DNA from: Eubacteriales bacterium
GTDB lineage: Bacteria > Bacillota > Clostridia > Oscillospirales > JAAYXM01
Direction of reading: 5' to 3'
Length of the DNA stretch: 64,000 nucleotides
Assembly (NCBI GenBank): GCA_045636865.1
Contig: JAZTYJ010000025.1
Span: 10,679-74,678, forward strand
The notes below the pieces were generated by a model. That model ran no database searches, had not been told where the DNA came from, and worked only from the letters and a program-made list of their open reading frames with translations. A program made the position numbers and the translations under genes. Shown here in pieces: positions 6,228-29,359 of this stretch. The first letter of the stretch is position 1; every line of letters begins with the position of its first letter.

Positions 6228-8702
6228 TTACTTTTCAATGCCGAGGAGACCGAGGGATTCCTCACGCATTTTATATTTGAGAATTTTCCCTGCAGCATTC
6301 ATCGGGAAGTTCTTTACAAACAGGAAGTATCTCGGAACCTTGTGGCGGGCGATATGCTCGTTACCAAACTCGCGCATTTCAGCTTCATCCGCCTCCACGC
6401 CGTCGTGAAGGATAATCCACGCACAGCACTCCTCGCCGTACTTCTTGTCCGGAACACCGATAACCTGAACGTCGCGAACCTTCGGGTTTGTGAGATAGAA
6501 TTCTTCAATTTCACGCGGGTAGAGGTTTTCACCACCACGGATAATCATATCCTTGAGTCGTCCCGTAACCTTGTAATAGCCGTCGGGAGTTCTGCAACAG
6601 ATATCGCCCGAATGGAGCCATCCGTCTTTATCTATCGTCTGCGCTGTTGCCTGCGGCATCTTGTAATATCCCTTCATAATATTGAAACCGCGTGCTACAA
6701 ACTCTCCGCTTTCACCGTCGGGGAGCTCTTCTCCCGTTTCGGGATCAATTATCTTACACTCAACACCGGGGAATGCGCTGCCGACAGTTTCAACTCTGTG
6801 GTCGATATCTTCGTTAACCTCGCCCATCGTACATCCGGGAGACGCTTCGGTCTGACCGTAAACGCTGATGATTTCCTTCATATTCATCTCATCTGCCGCG
6901 CGACGCATAAGATCTGCCGGACAGTTTGCGCCTGCCATAATTCCCGTGCGGATATATGAGAAATCGGTCTTTGCGAAATCGGGATGGTTGAACATCGCGA
7001 TAAACATAGTCGGAACGCCGTTGAAGCACGTTATATGCTCATCATTTACACATGCAAGCGACGACTTCGGTGAGAAATACGGCATCGGACAGAGCGTTCC
7101 GCCGTGTGTCATCATAGATGTCATTGAAAGAACCATTCCGAAACAATGGAACATCGGAACCTGAATCATCATGCGGTCTGCCGTTGAGAGATCCATTCTG
7201 TCTCCGATAGTTTTGCCGTTGTTGACAATATTTCTGTGAGTGAGCATAACGCCCTTCGGAAATCCCGTTGTGCCGGACGTGTACTGCATATTACATACAT
7301 CGTCGGGCTTTACAAGTGATGCACGGCGGCGCACCTCTTCCTTCGGGATCTCGTTTGCGCGGTCAAGCATCTGCTCCCAGTTGAGGCATCCCGGCATATC
7401 AAAACCTACCGTTACGATATTGCGAAGGAACGGAAGCTTCTTTGCATAAAGCGGCTCGCCCGGCTGCATCTCTGAAAGTTCAGGACAAAGCTCCTGCATA
7501 ATTTCGCGATAGTTTGTATCCTTGCAGTCTTCAATCATAACGAGTGTATGAGTATCCGACTGACGAAGAAGGTATTCGATTTCGTGAATTTTGTATGCAG
7601 TATTGACGGTTACGAGCACCGCGCCGATTTTCGTTGTCGCCCAGAAGGTTATAAACCACTGCGGGACATTTGTTGCCCAGATAGCAACGTGGTCGCCTGC
7701 CTTTACACCGAGAGCAATGAGAGCCGCTGCCGCTTCATCAACATCCGCGCGGAATTCCGAATAAGTTCTCGTATAATCAAGTGTGGTGTATTTAAAAGCA
7801 TACTGGTCGGGATACATATCGACCATCGTATCAAGAACCTCCGAAAAGGTCTTGTCAATTACCTTATATTTCTCCCACACAAAAGTTCCTGTTTTCGCTC
7901 TGTTATAGTAAACAGGCTTTGAAACCTTCTTCTCTCCGCCGCTTTTTGCAATGTAATTTAAAAAGTGGGTGAGAACAATGTCGGCATCGTCAATCTCATC
8001 GTTCCACGCAACAGAGATAAAACCGTCGTAATTGAGTGATGAAAGTGCGGAGATAACTTCTCCTACAGGAAGAGTTCCCTCTCCGATGAGAACGTTTTTA
8101 CCGTCCTTGCGGTCACCGAGACGAACATATTTAATGTATGCACCGAGGTTTGTGATGGTATCCTCGGCACTTTCGCCGCCGTCAAAATACGTCTCGCGCA
8201 CATCCCAGGCAGCACCAAGAACCGCGCTTGAGAAGTAGTTTATGATATCAAGGACATTCTCCGTATGAGAAAGATAATCGGATGTTGAGAGAAGAAGCTT
8301 TACATCTGTCCCCTCTGCTCGCTCAATTGCCGGCGAAAGCTTTTCTGAAAGCTTTTCCAGATCAGGCTTTTTCTCAACGTGAACAATAACCCCCGAAACA
8401 CCTGCGCCGCGAGCCATATCCACATATCGCTTAACCGCTTCGGCATCTGCATTCTCCGAATCAAGCGCATGCGGATAAATGAGAGCAGAAACCTCAAGTC
8501 CGCGGTTTATGAGCTTGCGTTTTGAATCAGACACGCTTCCGCTGCGAAGGATGCTGTCGTGATGACGGACTCTCTCGCCGTCTGCATCGTAGATTTCAAA
8601 ACCCGAGAATCCGTAATCGTATGCATATTTGCAGAGATCAAGGAATGACGGACGTGATACGTTTTTTGTTGAAAATGTGAGTTTCATCTTAATTCTCCTC
8701 AA
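6228..8702 (-). CDS. fusion protein: xylose-isomerase-like TIM barrel (sugar-phosphate isomerase/epimerase family) + AMP-dependent acyl-CoA synthetase/ligase
   Basis: Residues ~1-260 ([10 protein letters not shown]...[10 protein letters not shown]...VHVEKKP...VRLGDRK) look like an AP-endonuclease-2/TIM barrel. Residues ~290-824 carry the adenylation motifs [18 protein letters not shown]-like [34 protein letters not shown] and GKILK. Confidence 0.8.
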
Positions 8703-10080
8703 AGACGATCTTGTTCAGCGCATTGATGTACGCGCGTACACTCGCCGCAACGATGTCAGTTGAAATTCCGTTTCCTGAATAGAGCTTTCCCTGACTGCGA
8801 AGACGGACAATAGCTGAACCGAGAGCCTCCTTGCCCTCCGTTACTGCCTGAATCTGGAAATCGTCGAGTTCATAGTGATATCCTATGCTGTTTTCTATTG
8901 CACGGAAAACAGAGTCGATCGGACCGTCACCCGTGCTGACTCCGCAGAGAAGTTCGTTTCCGCAACGGAGTGTAACCTGCGACATCGAGCTTGTGAGATT
9001 GCCGCAATTTGTTGTGTAGCTCTCAAGGTGATATTTCGACGGAGCCTGCATGGCAAAGCTTGCGATAAGGGCTTCAAGTTCTCTTGCGGCTACGCTGTCT
9101 TTCTTCTCACAGACTTTCTTGAGCTCTGCAAAAACGGTTCCGCAATCCTCATCCGAAAGGTCATATCCCAGAATCTTTGCGGCATCAGCAACCTCGGAGA
9201 GTGTGCTTTCAAAAGTGAGAAGAATTGAGCTTCGTGAGCCGTCTGCATCCTCATCGGTCTTCGGTGTGTCATGTGAAATTCTTTCAAGAAGCTCGCGGGT
9301 ACTTGTATGCACCTTCGTGCTCTTTAAGTCTGTATATGCATCAAATGCCTCGCCCCTGCGACTTATTGCATCTGAAATCGCACCTGTTGCAAGCACCTTA
9401 TCGCCTGCAAGGGCACACTTAATTCCTTCTGCACCTGCGCGGACAGCTGAAAGAGCGATTGCAACCGCCATATCGAGGCTGTCTGAAACCTGAACAAAAA
9501 CAGGAGTCTTAACCTTTGCGGTGATTTTTGCAACAAGCTCTGCCATTTCTTCGGGGAGAACCATTCCCGCGCTGTCGCAAAGAGTAACTTCCTTTGCACC
9601 TGCATTTACTGCCTCCGCAACACAACTCTCAAGGAAATCGTAATCTGCGCGCGTTGCATCAAGTGCAACAAACTCAACATCAGCACAATACTTGAGTGCC
9701 TCTCCTACAAGAGCTGAAATCTTCGGAAGCATCTTTTCTGCCTTGATGTGGTATGTATATTCCATAGCGACGGTAGATGTCGGAACAACTACCTGAAGGC
9801 GCGGCTTTTCCGCATCCTTTATGCATTCCCAGGCGGTCGCAACCTCATCCTCCGAAAAGCCTACAGGGATTGCAACCGTGCAACCCTTGACGGTTGATGC
9901 GATTGTCTTATAGATTATTGTATCCTCACGTAAATTTTTGATAGGAGCCAACTCAATAGCATCTGCGCCGAGAGCATTTGCAGCAGAAGCAATTGCAGTT
10001 TTCTCACGGAAAAGCAAAGCTACCTCGCGGCTCTGCGCAAGCTCCTTTAAAGTGATGTCAGAAATGTAGATTTTTTTCAT
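8689..10080 (-). CDS. 2-isopropylmalate synthase/homocitrate synthase homologue with degenerate catalytic motifs and an intact LeuA-type C-terminal regulatory domain
   Basis: Collinear with LeuA, but DTTLRDGEQ is replaced by DITLKELAQ and the HxH metal site (VHTHDD) by VQVSDS. The C-terminus TGDGPIDSVFRAIENSI...GKEALGSAIVRL...GISTDIVAASVRAYINALN matches the LeuA allosteric domain. ATG 10080 has RBS GGGG 8 nt upstream; the track start at 10098 is a TTG. Confidence 0.75.
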   Translation of the reverse strand: MKKIYISDITLKELAQSREVALLFREKTAIASAANALGADAIELAPIKNLREDTIIYKTIASTVKGCTVAIPVGFSEDEVATAWECIKDAEKPRLQVVVPTSTVAMEYTYHIKAEKMLPKISALVGEALKYCADVEFVALDATRADYDFLESCVAEAVNAGAKEVTLCDSAGMVLPEEMAELVAKITAKVKTPVFVQVSDSLDMAVAIALSAVRAGAEGIKCALAGDKVLATGAISDAISRRGEAFDAYTDLKSTKVHTSTRELLERISHDTPKTDEDADGSRSSILLTFESTLSEVADAAKILGYDLSDEDCGTVFAELKKVCEKKDSVAARELEALIASFAMQAPSKYHLESYTTNCGNLTSSMSQVTLRCGNELLCGVSTGDGPIDSVFRAIENSIGYHYELDDFQIQAVTEGKEALGSAIVRLRSQGKLYSGNGISTDIVAASVRAYINALNKIVFEEN

Positions 10081-10124
10081 TTTGAAAGCCCCTTTCAAAT
10101 TTATATCTGCAAAATTTTATCAAA

Positions 10125-10405
10125 CCAACAAAAAAACGCTTTCGTCTCATTGTCGATTCAAAGAGACGAAAACGTTAAGTTCAAAACTGTTTCCGCGGTA
10201 CCACTCTTTTTCACCCTTACGGATGCACTTTGGATGCCAACACATCTTAACTCTGTTACGGGAGTGCCCGTCTGCCCCTACTGCAAGTTCACGGCAGCCG
10301 CTCAACGGTGAGTTCTGCAAGTCTTCCCCGATGTCTCGCACCACCCGACATCTCTCTCGAGGCGAAAGAATTTTGCATACTATTCCGCATCACTGCGTTT
10401 ACAAT
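10125..10405 (-). promoter_or_regulatory. T-box riboswitch leader, specifier CUC (leucine)
   Basis: Minus-strand elements:
- AGTA S-turn half, AGAGAG bulge and GGTGGTGCGA distal loop;
- specifier loop GAA-CUC-A (codon is the complement of 10310-10312);
- T-box sequence AGAGTGGTACCGCGG (complement of 10193-10207);
- terminator TTTTCGTCTC-n14-GAGACGAAAGCGTTTTTTT ending ~10130. Confidence 0.85.
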
Positions 10406-10484: not shown

Positions 10485-12017
10485 TTAGTCGTCTATTTCG
10501 TTGTTTGTTGCATTTTCAAAAATTGCCAAAACTTCAGCTGACGGCTTTTTGTCGATAAGTGTTACAACTACCGCCGCAATTGCACCGATTATAAAGCCCG
10601 GTATAATCTCATAGATTCCTGTTGCTGCTGTGAGTGTTGCACCGTTAATCGGGAGCCACAACCAGAGCATATCAACCAAAGCACCGACTACGATACCTGC
10701 AACCGCACCCTTGTATGTAAAGCGTTTCCAGAAAAGTGAGAACAAAACTGCAGGACCGAATGCCGCGCCGAAGATACCCCATGCGTTTGAAACGAGGTCC
10801 ATAATAGCCTGTGCCGCATCACCTTCGCTGCTTGCGATAAAGTATGCAACAACTGCGATAACAATAACTATAAAGCGGCTTACCCAGAGCATTTCCTTGT
10901 TTGATGCGTTCTTTCTGATAATCGGCTTATAGAGGTCGCTTGCAAATGAAGATGCCGCAACAAGAAGCTGTGAGTCGGCAGTTGACATTGATGCCGCGAT
11001 AATTGCAGCAAGCAAAAGTCCTGCGATAAATGCCGGGAATACATCACGGGCAAGCTCGACAAATATCAATGACTGCTGACCGTTTTCAAGCAATACCTTT
11101 GAAAGGTCTGTGCCGTTTGAATATACAAACATTCTGCCGAGATACGCAATTACAACTGCTGCGCCGAGTGAAAGAATAACCCAGATAATTGCAACCGTTG
11201 CTGATTTTTTTACCATTGACGGCTTTTCGATTGCCATAAATCTTACGATGATATGCGGCATACCGAAATAACCAAGACCCCAGCCAAGACCTGAAACAAT
11301 ATCCTTCCAGCTTGCGTTCATAAAGCTTGCGACAAACTCAAACTCTTCGCCGTTCGGACCGTGATAAATCGTCGTAAGCGCTGCAGGATCAAGATCTTTT
11401 GCAAAACCTATGACAATAGGCACGATAAGTAGTGCCGCAAGCATAAGAAGTCCCTGGAAGAAGTCCGTCCAGCAAACTGCCTTGAATCCGCCGAGGAATG
11501 TGTATGCAAGAACGATTACTGCAAAAATGATCATCGCAGTTGACTTTGAGAGAGCGGGAACAAGCGTTGTGAAGACGTCTGAACCTGCAACGAATGCTGA
11601 TGCAACGTAGATCGTAAAGCAAACCAAAAATACTACTGCACAGATGATGCTCAAAGTATGGCTCTTTGAAAGAAAACGATTTGAAAGATACTGTGGAAGC
11701 GTGATAGCATCTCCTGATGCCTTTGAGAACTTACGGAGTCTCTTTGCCACGATAATCCAGTTTGCAGCAGTACCTATTGCAAGACCGATACCAATCCAGG
11801 CCTGACCGAAACCGAATGCCAGAATGCTTCCGGGAAGACCCATCAAAAGCCATGCGCTCATATCCGATGCTTGAGCACTCATAGCGGTTACCCACGGACC
11901 CATTGATCTGCCGCCGAGGAAGTAATCCTTTTCTGTTTCACTCTTTGACTTGAAGAAGAACCAAACACCTATAGCAACCATTGCTACAAAGTACAATGCA
12001 AATGCTAAAATATCCAT
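10485..12017 (-). CDS. putP: sodium/proline symporter (SSS family)
   Basis: 510 aa, ~13 TM. N-terminus DYFLGGRSMGPWVTAMSAQASDMSAWLLMGLPG is typical of PutP. Confidence 0.8.
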   Translation of the reverse strand: MDILAFALYFVAMVAIGVWFFFKSKSETEKDYFLGGRSMGPWVTAMSAQASDMSAWLLMGLPGSILAFGFGQAWIGIGLAIGTAANWIIVAKRLRKFSKASGDAITLPQYLSNRFLSKSHTLSIICAVVFLVCFTIYVASAFVAGSDVFTTLVPALSKSTAMIIFAVIVLAYTFLGGFKAVCWTDFFQGLLMLAALLIVPIVIGFAKDLDPAALTTIYHGPNGEEFEFVASFMNASWKDIVSGLGWGLGYFGMPHIIVRFMAIEKPSMVKKSATVAIIWVILSLGAAVVIAYLGRMFVYSNGTDLSKVLLENGQQSLIFVELARDVFPAFIAGLLLAAIIAASMSTADSQLLVAASSFASDLYKPIIRKNASNKEMLWVSRFIVIVIAVVAYFIASSEGDAAQAIMDLVSNAWGIFGAAFGPAVLFSLFWKRFTYKGAVAGIVVGALVDMLWLWLPINGATLTAATGIYEIIPGFIIGAIAAVVVTLIDKKPSAEVLAIFENATNNEIDD

Positions 12018-13632: not shown

Positions 13633-13790
13633 ACCTTTTTAAAAGTGTTGTGCTTTTCTCTGTTCTTTTGCCTGAGAGATTCAGCGAAAATTCGCCTTAC
13701 ACCTTCGGCACCCATTTAAGAGATTCTCCAGAGTTCCCTCCCCTTTCAGTTTCTTTCGATTCTGAAAGTTTCACAGGGCAATATTAAATT
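13633..13790 (-). promoter_or_regulatory. glycine riboswitch (one clear aptamer plus expression-platform hairpin)
   Basis: The minus strand reads CTCTGGAGAATCTCTTAAATGGGTGCCGAAGGTGTAAGGCGAATTTTCGCTGAATCTCTCAGGCAAAAGAACAGAG. This matches the conserved CUCUGGAGA...GCCGAAGG...CUCUCAGGCAAAAGGACAGAG core. It is followed by GCACAAC...GTTGTGC-GTTTTC. Confidence 0.8.
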
Positions 13791-29123: not shown

Positions 29124-29359
29124 CTCCCCTCTTTCAAGGACATTATATTCGTCGTGGTCTTGTATGATGTAACAAGCCCGACCGCAAATAAAAAACTGCA
29201 ACAACAGAAAGCCCTGCTTATGGGCCACTATTATTGCAGCTGGACTGGCATAGTATAAAACCTTAGCCTCTTTGCTTTGCGTCGCCGGCTTTCGCCGGGT
29301 TTGCCAAATATTCAATTTCTATCAGTTTATCACACTAAAGTTTTTCTGTCAAATATTAT

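Follow-up and report, generated by a model that had tools for sequence, protein, structure and literature searches.

A LeuA-like protein without catalytic residues, encoded between a leucine T-box and an acyl-CoA ligase fusion, as a candidate leucine sensor in Clostridia

A stretch of 64,000 nucleotides from the genome of an Eubacteriales bacterium (GTDB lineage Bacteria; Bacillota; Clostridia; Oscillospirales; JAAYXM01; assembly GCA_045636865.1, contig JAZTYJ010000025.1, positions 10,679 to 74,678 of the forward strand), hereafter called the window, carries on its minus strand a gene for a relative of isopropylmalate synthase (IPMS, LeuA). The gene is preceded by a T-box leader RNA and closely followed by a partner gene that encodes a fusion of a TIM barrel with an acyl-CoA ligase (Table 1). 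The translation of the LeuA-like reading frame begins with MKKIYISD, and an AAAGGGG ribosome-binding site is located approximately 8 nucleotides 5' of its ATG. A protein identical to the 463-aa product is present in the database, and relatives share its start methionine. A TTG at position 10098 was also considered as start codon and ruled out, because the relatives begin at the ATG at 10080 and the ribosome-binding site precedes that ATG. The ribosome-binding site of the fusion gene (GAGGAG) sits within the 3' end of the LeuA-like gene, and the nearest NCBIfam model for the ligase fusion is PRK12583, "fatty acid CoA ligase family".

The leader was identified as a T-box over the full length of the Rfam model. 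In the cmscan alignment the specifier codon is CUC, which stands for leucine, at positions 10312-10310 (context GAA-CUC-A), while the conserved T-box sequence GAGUGGUACCGCG is found near 10207-10195, and a tRNA-Leu(GAG) is encoded in the same genome. Reading of the sequence further revealed a stem formed by TTCGTCTC and GAGACGAA, followed by seven T; the 5' arm of this hairpin overlaps the 3' end of the Rfam match, and it would act as the terminator of the leader. A leader on the strand of the gene, a leucine specifier and a terminator-like hairpin together place the gene in a leucine T-box regulon. Of 79 related loci, 70 have the T-box core motif ahead of the gene, and the specifier column of these 70 leaders reads CTC in 68, CTG in one and CCC in one, hence a leucine codon in 69, with variable flanking bases. 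Uncharged tRNA-Leu is accordingly the predicted signal that controls expression of the LeuA-like gene in the closer subfamily.

Table 1. Coordinates of the LeuA-like locus, its parts and further elements of the window (positions are those of the window).
Feature	Position	Strand	Details
LeuA-like pseudoenzyme gene	8689..10080	minus	ORF of 463 aa plus stop (TAA); ATG at 10080
Degenerate DRE-TIM (HMGL-like) barrel	9286..10080	minus	residues 1-265; from alignments and AlphaFold2
Shortened accessory region	9076..9285	minus	residues 266-335; subdomain I deleted, subdomain-II-like helical part (LGYDLSxED...) retained
LeuA-type allosteric (regulatory/dimerisation) domain	8692..9075	minus	residues 336-463; two beta-beta-beta-alpha units, GDGPID and GxSTDI at helix N-termini
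T-box leader RNA	10159..10402	minus	full-length match to Rfam RF00230, 122.8 bits (gathering score 93), E = 1e-26
Probable intrinsic terminator of the T-box	10130..10171	minus	stem followed by seven T; sequence reading
Partner gene, 819-aa fusion	6228..8687	minus	adjoins the LeuA-like stop with 1-nt spacing (TAA-G-ATG)
Xylose-isomerase-like TIM barrel of the fusion	7923-8687	minus	residues 1-255
ANL acyl-CoA ligase of the fusion	6231-7862	minus	residues 276-819
SSF sodium:solute symporter gene	10485-12017	minus	directly upstream of the T-box
Glycine riboswitch aptamer	13650-13741	minus	Rfam; ahead of a Na:alanine symporter gene
c-di-GMP-I riboswitch	29232-29315	minus	Rfam

Two Pfam domains were recognized in the LeuA-like protein, i.e., HMGL-like (PF00682, residues 9-232, 104 bits) and LeuA_dimer (PF08502, residues 336-464, 108 bits, profile positions 2-130 of 131). 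The best NCBIfam model, NF002086, reached 275 bits against a cut-off of 532 and TIGR00973 reached 249 bits against 599, while the models for CimA, NifV and homocitrate synthase (HCS) all scored far under their cut-offs; according to these models the closest sequence relatives are LeuA proteins, which are nearer than CimA. In order to compare the catalytic motifs, the protein was aligned with LeuA of E. coli K-12 (NC_000913, b0074), 104 family representatives and eight longer LeuA relatives, three of them canonical and five partly degenerate. E. coli DTTLRDGEQ (residues 9-17) aligned with DITLKELAQ, CEDAGR (140-145) with ALDATR, and VHTHDDLG (201-208) with VQVSDSLD, and the same register was obtained from HMMER alignments to the solved LeuA structures 3EWB, 3RMJ, and 6E1J. 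These are exactly the substitutions listed in an earlier sequence-only reading of the window. That reading had also given GIGERAGN (231-238) as replaced by AGDKVLATG; the motif is indeed lost, not by plain replacement but by a deletion of four residues followed by the unrelated residues GDKV. As for the metal ligands, the Asp of RDG became Glu and the two His of HxH became Gln and Ser, and as for the substrate residues, the Arg of LRDG became Lys and the Glu of EDAxR became Leu. The claim that every metal and substrate ligand is replaced thus holds, and it does so over 105 diverse relatives: the RDG Asp survives in 8 of the 105 representatives, His is outside the seven commonest residues at both HxH columns, and the gap in the GERAGN loop, which takes its first four residues (GIGE), is present in at least 103 members at three columns and in 93 at the first column. 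Across the family the former active-site positions are variable, with no new fixed set of residues in their place. The multiple alignment, which the earlier reading had named as a check, consequently places the catalytic residues as replaced and not merely shifted, and the low NCBIfam scores for LeuA, CimA and NifV agree with it.

A further deletion of approximately 30 residues had been overlooked in that reading, whose list of lesions was correct but incomplete. It removes accessory subdomain I (E. coli HSSGIHQDG, 295-303; motif HxSGIHQDG) in all 105 members. IPMS activity requires the accessory domain, of which subdomain I forms the cap over the active site and contributes His379 and Tyr410 (M. 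tuberculosis numbering; PMC9860122). Since metal ligands, substrate Arg and Glu, GERAGN loop and subdomain I were lost family-wide, the alignments strongly support the view, already expressed from the sequence, that the protein should be incapable of LeuA-type Claisen condensation; we hold it to be very probably a non-catalytic relic of LeuA.

The fold was predicted with AlphaFold2 on a 54-sequence alignment and resulted in a model with a mean pLDDT (predicted local distance difference test) of 89 and values of at least 93 across most of the barrel. It consists of a complete (beta/alpha)8 barrel, a helical linker and two beta-beta-beta-alpha units, with low confidence for residues 271-281, where subdomain I would sit. 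The top Foldseek matches were methylthioalkylmalate synthase (MAM), full-length M. tuberculosis LeuA (including the leucine-bound structure 3FIG) and isolated LeuA barrels, and the superposition with 3EWB (TM-score 0.91, root-mean-square deviation 1.8 Å) assigns the protein to the same barrel fold.

The regulatory domain is the best-conserved part of the protein, with a mean pairwise identity of 81% among 67 orthologues (barrel 62%, linker 57%). In the wider family, 71 positions are conserved at 85% or more, 50 of them after residue 300 and 21 in the barrel. Those in the barrel are mostly fold determinants common to LeuA (D8, T10, S102, D141, A142, R144, G161, D169, P176), and the few family-specific ones (F24, P100, E107, Y108, K113) do not substitute for the lost active-site residues; a search among the conserved barrel positions for a fixed new polar set, as a new active site would have, found none. 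The MEY motif, which contains E107 and Y108, is also present in the active LeuA of Neisseria and Listeria according to the HMMER alignments. The C-terminal signatures GDGPIDSVF, GKEALGSA, and STDIVAASVRAYINALNK are present and align with the regulatory domain of LeuA, so that their retention, as stated in the earlier reading, was borne out. GDGPID and GxSTDI are kept at 93-100% across the family and cap, in the model, the N-termini of helices 387-399 and 443-462. In M. tuberculosis LeuA, leucine is reported to occupy pockets at the interface of the dimer, with its carboxylate between the N-termini of two helices (PMC11057210). Residue G421 is the counterpart of E. coli G462 in the alignment, and 104 of 105 members have Gly at this position; G462D has been used in E. 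coli LeuA as a mutation that disrupts allosteric feedback (PMC6345581). The conservation of the leucine site was judged by the helix-cap motifs and the G462 position.

An exhaustive profile-free search recovered more than 100 clusters at 50% identity, each with proteins of 455-480 aa matched over their full length; genuine LeuAs (about 500 aa) appeared only under approximately 200 bits. The family as a whole has diverged to approximately 35% identity. At least 591 genomes with a relative of the LeuA-like protein were found in a scan of one genome per species, and the best 80 of these are metagenome-assembled genomes (MAGs) of Clostridia (Acutalibacteraceae, Oscillospiraceae, Christensenellaceae, "Eubacteriales") from gut, faeces and rumen. 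The gene is carried by 60 of 300 evenly sampled Clostridia genomes, in 33 of 178 genera, and the name given by NCBI to named relatives is "hypothetical protein". The family is under strong purifying selection, which is strongest in the allosteric domain. Five LeuA relatives of approximately 500 aa from the representative search (P0240, P0249, P0252, P0265, P0267) are half degenerate: most keep GERAGN, all are without HxSGIHQDG, and part of RDGEQ is gone in four and part of HxH in three. These proteins could be transitional forms or a second lineage of pseudo-LeuA.

The fusion gene is located directly 3' of the LeuA-like gene in every locus with downstream sequence (approximately 78 of 80 genome-contig loci), and it is the next gene in all 18 separately fetched distant members of the family (31-47% identity) as well. 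Mean identity within fusion orthologues is 89% for the ligase part and 67% for the barrel. The LeuA-like gene is thus predicted to be co-expressed with, and only with, a particular acyl-CoA ligase. A complex prediction of the full LeuA-like protein with the fusion barrel (34-row alignments for each) scored 0.37 vs. 0.39 for one unrelated control. No fusion of a LeuA-like protein with the ligase was found among proteins of 812-2315 aa at E ≤ 1e-30, which is weak evidence. The N-terminal barrel of the fusion was modelled with a pLDDT of 89 and resembles UlaE, AsbF and sugar 3-epimerases (TM-scores 0.7-0.77); according to the HMMER alignment with MJ1311, the His, His, and Glu of that family are replaced by Arg, Arg, and Ala in the fusion barrel, and the copy in the window has Ser134 at a position where Glu is found in at least 90% of orthologues. 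This barrel, too, may be non-catalytic.

The genome that contains the window (1.65 Mb, 91% complete) has the LeuA-like gene as its sole HMGL-like gene, and a search for LeuB and LeuC equivalogs in it found neither. Its single Iso_dh-family gene is best described as isocitrate dehydrogenase, far under the leuB cut-off, and its single aconitase-family gene encodes a 784-aa PRK11413 hydratase and not LeuC. Among the 300 sampled Clostridia genomes LeuB (TIGR00169) was detected in 162, with no hit in 53 of the 60 carriers of the LeuA-like gene and presence in 155 of the 240 non-carriers; a strong LeuB match was found in five carriers (G017, G065, G075, G106, G164) and a weak one in two (G137, G223). 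The pattern repeats in several families, e.g., the LeuA-like gene occurs in 11/11 and LeuB in 2/11 genomes of family f8, as compared with 0/10 and 10/10, respectively, in family f27. We describe this inverse distribution as a trend and attach no statistic to it, given an incomplete sample of related genomes. The LeuA-like gene is mostly found in genomes without the isopropylmalate pathway but with the aminotransferase IlvE and ketoisovalerate:ferredoxin oxidoreductase (VOR).

In many loci the gene pair is clustered with a branched-chain aminotransferase (BCAT) gene, a ParA-like gene and VOR delta/alpha/beta/gamma, often together with further ligases. In the genome under study the BCAT-VOR cluster lies outside the window, on a separate contig (C4, locus L091:1934-11486), in the order T-box with AUC specifier (Ile), 790-aa frame, T-box with GUA specifier (Val), 762-aa frame, ilvE (508 bits, above cut-off), ParA-like gene, and VOR delta/alpha/beta/gamma (VorB model 556 bits, above cut-off). 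The 790-aa and 762-aa frames each combine an XRE-type helix-turn-helix (HTH), a cupin and an AMP-binding ligase. In the relative locus L002 HTH-cupin (183 aa) and ligase (565 aa) are separate genes, and fusion in one case with separation in the other suggests that the HTH-cupin part works with the ligase itself. A third module, again outside the window (contig C23, locus L092:402-7991), has a T-box with UAC specifier (Tyr) before an acyl-CoA ligase and an SSF-family symporter, and continues with an IOR-like 2-oxoacid oxidoreductase (579 + 191 aa), a PaaK-like ligase (432 aa) and a 142-aa gene; it looks like the aromatic counterpart of the same salvage logic. It seems that this organism derives several amino acids from the carboxylic acids that correspond to them, with a ligase under the matching T-box at the start of each route. 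The gene directly upstream of the leucine T-box in the window also encodes an SSF sodium:solute symporter, an 86%-identical copy of which is located downstream of the ligase in locus L032, while the Tyr module has another SSF gene; the symporter may import carboxylic-acid precursors.

The explanation that we favour starts from the synthesis of leucine by carboxylation of isovalerate, which has been established in rumen bacteria (Allison, Bucklin & Robinson 1966, as cited in PMC7356843). The ligase would activate isovalerate to isovaleryl-CoA, VOR would reductively carboxylate isovaleryl-CoA to 2-ketoisocaproate, and the branched-chain aminotransferase IlvE would turn the latter into leucine, a route that would stand in for the missing isopropylmalate pathway. 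The LeuA-like gene would be the first of a two-gene unit switched on by uncharged tRNA-Leu via the T-box, and its product a non-catalytic, leucine-binding partner of the ligase that provides fast end-product feedback or leucine-dependent assembly on the ATP-costly first step. What we infer here is which substrate the ligase uses, that the ligand is leucine, that the two proteins are in physical contact, and in which direction the regulation works. We consider it likely that the protein belongs to an isovalerate-to-leucine route, and we see roughly even chances for the full mechanism, i.e., a leucine-sensing, non-catalytic subunit of an isovalerate-CoA ligase. That the whole LeuA body was recycled as a detachable leucine sensor, which together with the degenerate barrel of the fusion gates this ligase, is a plausible version with chances somewhat short of even. 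The sequence-only reading had likewise proposed that the protein senses leucine and serves the ligase as a regulatory or scaffold subunit. The leucine T-box, the invariant adjacency, the conserved regulatory domain and the Gly at the G462 position in 104 of 105 members are consistent with this role.

Several observations weigh against this explanation. Leucine binding and ligase binding of the LeuA-like protein are both predictions. In the distant members (31-47% identity) the T-box is absent both by motif and by the Rfam gathering score, and the direct link to leucine is therefore limited to the closer subfamily; the T-box is also absent in a closer subgroup with BCAT-VOR downstream (L002, L005, L006, L010, L012). 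The regulatory domain has family-specific invariant residues unlike those of canonical LeuA (YELDDF at 403-408, LR at 427-428, Y434, G438), so the ligand could differ, or these residues could form a surface for a partner. The accessory protein of the Ile and Val modules is an HTH-cupin and no relic of an enzyme, which makes the analogy between the modules a positional one only. Furthermore, 5-7 of the 60 carriers also have LeuB, hence the route is no strict replacement, and the compared genomes are related, so that all counts overstate independence.

The protein might instead be a scaffold, i.e., a structural or activating subunit that the ligase cannot do without, or an adaptor passing isovaleryl-CoA on to VOR, with the regulatory domain as a dimerisation or docking module and no sensing of leucine. 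The invariant and tightly spaced gene pair would fit such a role, Pfam describes LeuA_dimer as a dimerisation and an allosteric domain alike, the family-specific invariant surface residues could be a protein interface, and the N-terminal barrel of the partner also looks non-catalytic, which suggests a structural assembly. We nevertheless regard this alternative as rather unlikely, since the GDGPID/GxSTD helix caps and the G462 equivalent are kept at 93-100% despite an identity of approximately 35%, none of which docking alone would need, and leucine is the natural effector under leucine T-box control. The domain could also sense another ligand, such as 2-ketoisocaproate, isovalerate, isovaleryl-CoA or another branched-chain amino acid. 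Related regulatory domains do bind other effectors (citramalate synthase binds isoleucine, PMC9860122), and the family-specific residues could retune the pocket; however, the specifier is a leucine codon in 69 of 70 leaders, the same genome has separate modules with Ile and Val specifiers, each with its own ligase, and the closest relatives are LeuA and not CimA, which makes a different ligand improbable.

A barrel that is intact and confidently folded in the model might, on the other hand, have acquired a new metal-independent activity, e.g., with the acyl-adenylate or acyl-CoA as substrate, or with a keto acid in cooperation with the TIM barrel of the partner. The few family-specific conserved polar residues (E107, Y108, K113) and the retention of the ancestral D8, D141, R144, and D169 speak for such a neo-enzyme, but just 21 of the 71 conserved positions are in the barrel and they are mostly fold determinants shared with LeuA, the former active-site positions vary without a new fixed set, the MEY motif also belongs to active LeuA of Neisseria and Listeria, and subdomain I, the lid of the active site, is lost; we thus give this possibility little credence. 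Least credible of all is a decaying relic without function. Although the catalytic residues are lost and the relatives are named "hypothetical protein", intact full-length frames exist in 60 of 300 sampled Clostridia genomes and in at least 591 species genomes, the family forms more than 100 clusters at 50% identity, orthologues have a mean identity of 81% in the regulatory domain, and gene order and spacing are fixed, all of which contradicts decay.

Compared with the short bacterial form of LeuA/IPMS in the DRE-TIM metallolyase superfamily (E. coli b0074; structures 3EWB, 3RMJ, 1SR9/3FIG), the LeuA-like protein has the same domain order, clear homology (Pfam E = 1e-30 for both domains) and a matching predicted fold, and both share the ligand-site motifs of the regulatory domain and the feedback-resistance glycine. 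Unlike LeuA, it is without Asp/His/His, the substrate Arg and Glu, the GERAGN loop and subdomain I, is approximately 50 residues shorter, reaches about half of the NCBIfam cut-off scores, and is encoded with an acyl-CoA ligase instead of leuBCD, mostly in genomes without LeuB. The family combines two known themes, i.e., the reshuffling of domains among LeuA relatives and pseudoenzymes as regulatory subunits. MAM (6E1J), the best Foldseek match, and truncated IPMS illustrate the former: MAM is also an offshoot of LeuA with changed domains, but it kept catalysis and lost the regulatory domain, whereas the LeuA-like family did the opposite. For the latter, HisZ is the closest functional analogy. 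It is a paralogue of histidyl-tRNA synthetase without catalysis that serves as the regulatory subunit of the short-form ATP phosphoribosyltransferase HisG, and both the HisZ-HisG complex and histidine binding are experimentally established. In either case an ex-enzyme would carry end-product sensing for the non-homologous first enzyme of a pathway, and the LeuA-like family is, like HisZ, an enzyme paralogue without catalytic residues under purifying selection; fold and ancestry differ, and here both binding events are only predicted. The rumen isovalerate-carboxylation pathway (Allison et al. 1966, PMC7356843) corresponds to the proposed role, with activation, reductive carboxylation and transamination, and its habitat matches the rumen and gut MAGs in which the relatives occur; as cited there, the 1966 work defined a labelling pattern and no genes. 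In the literature searched we found no published description of a LeuA-like pseudoenzyme family, no paper joining "isopropylmalate synthase" with "pseudoenzyme", no LeuA-like accessory protein or leucine T-box control of an isovalerate-activating enzyme, and no link of a T-box to an isovalerate ligase or VOR, isovalerate carboxylation being present in general statements only.

Rfam additionally identified two riboswitches elsewhere in the window, i.e., a glycine riboswitch aptamer and a c-di-GMP-I riboswitch (Table 1).

Many fibre-degrading bacteria of the rumen and gut need branched short-chain fatty acids as growth factors, and the genes for the activating enzyme of isovalerate carboxylation and for its control are poorly defined. 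If the favoured explanation is true, the leucine T-box, the dead LeuA, the barrel-ligase fusion, IlvE and VOR would be a testable gene set and the first definition of the isovalerate-carboxylation route to leucine in terms of genes and regulation. In a large share of the Clostridia of gut and rumen this route would take the place of the isopropylmalate pathway, and the distribution of the LeuA-like gene suggests such a stand-in for approximately one fifth of the sampled Clostridia genomes. For annotation and metabolic modelling, this would mean that leucine auxotrophy should not be assigned to such genomes, nor the name LeuA to the gene. The leucine module would work beside parallel T-box-controlled Ile, Val and aromatic modules of the same logic, and the LeuA-like family would show cleanly how an allosteric enzyme persisted as a sensor once its catalysis had become useless.

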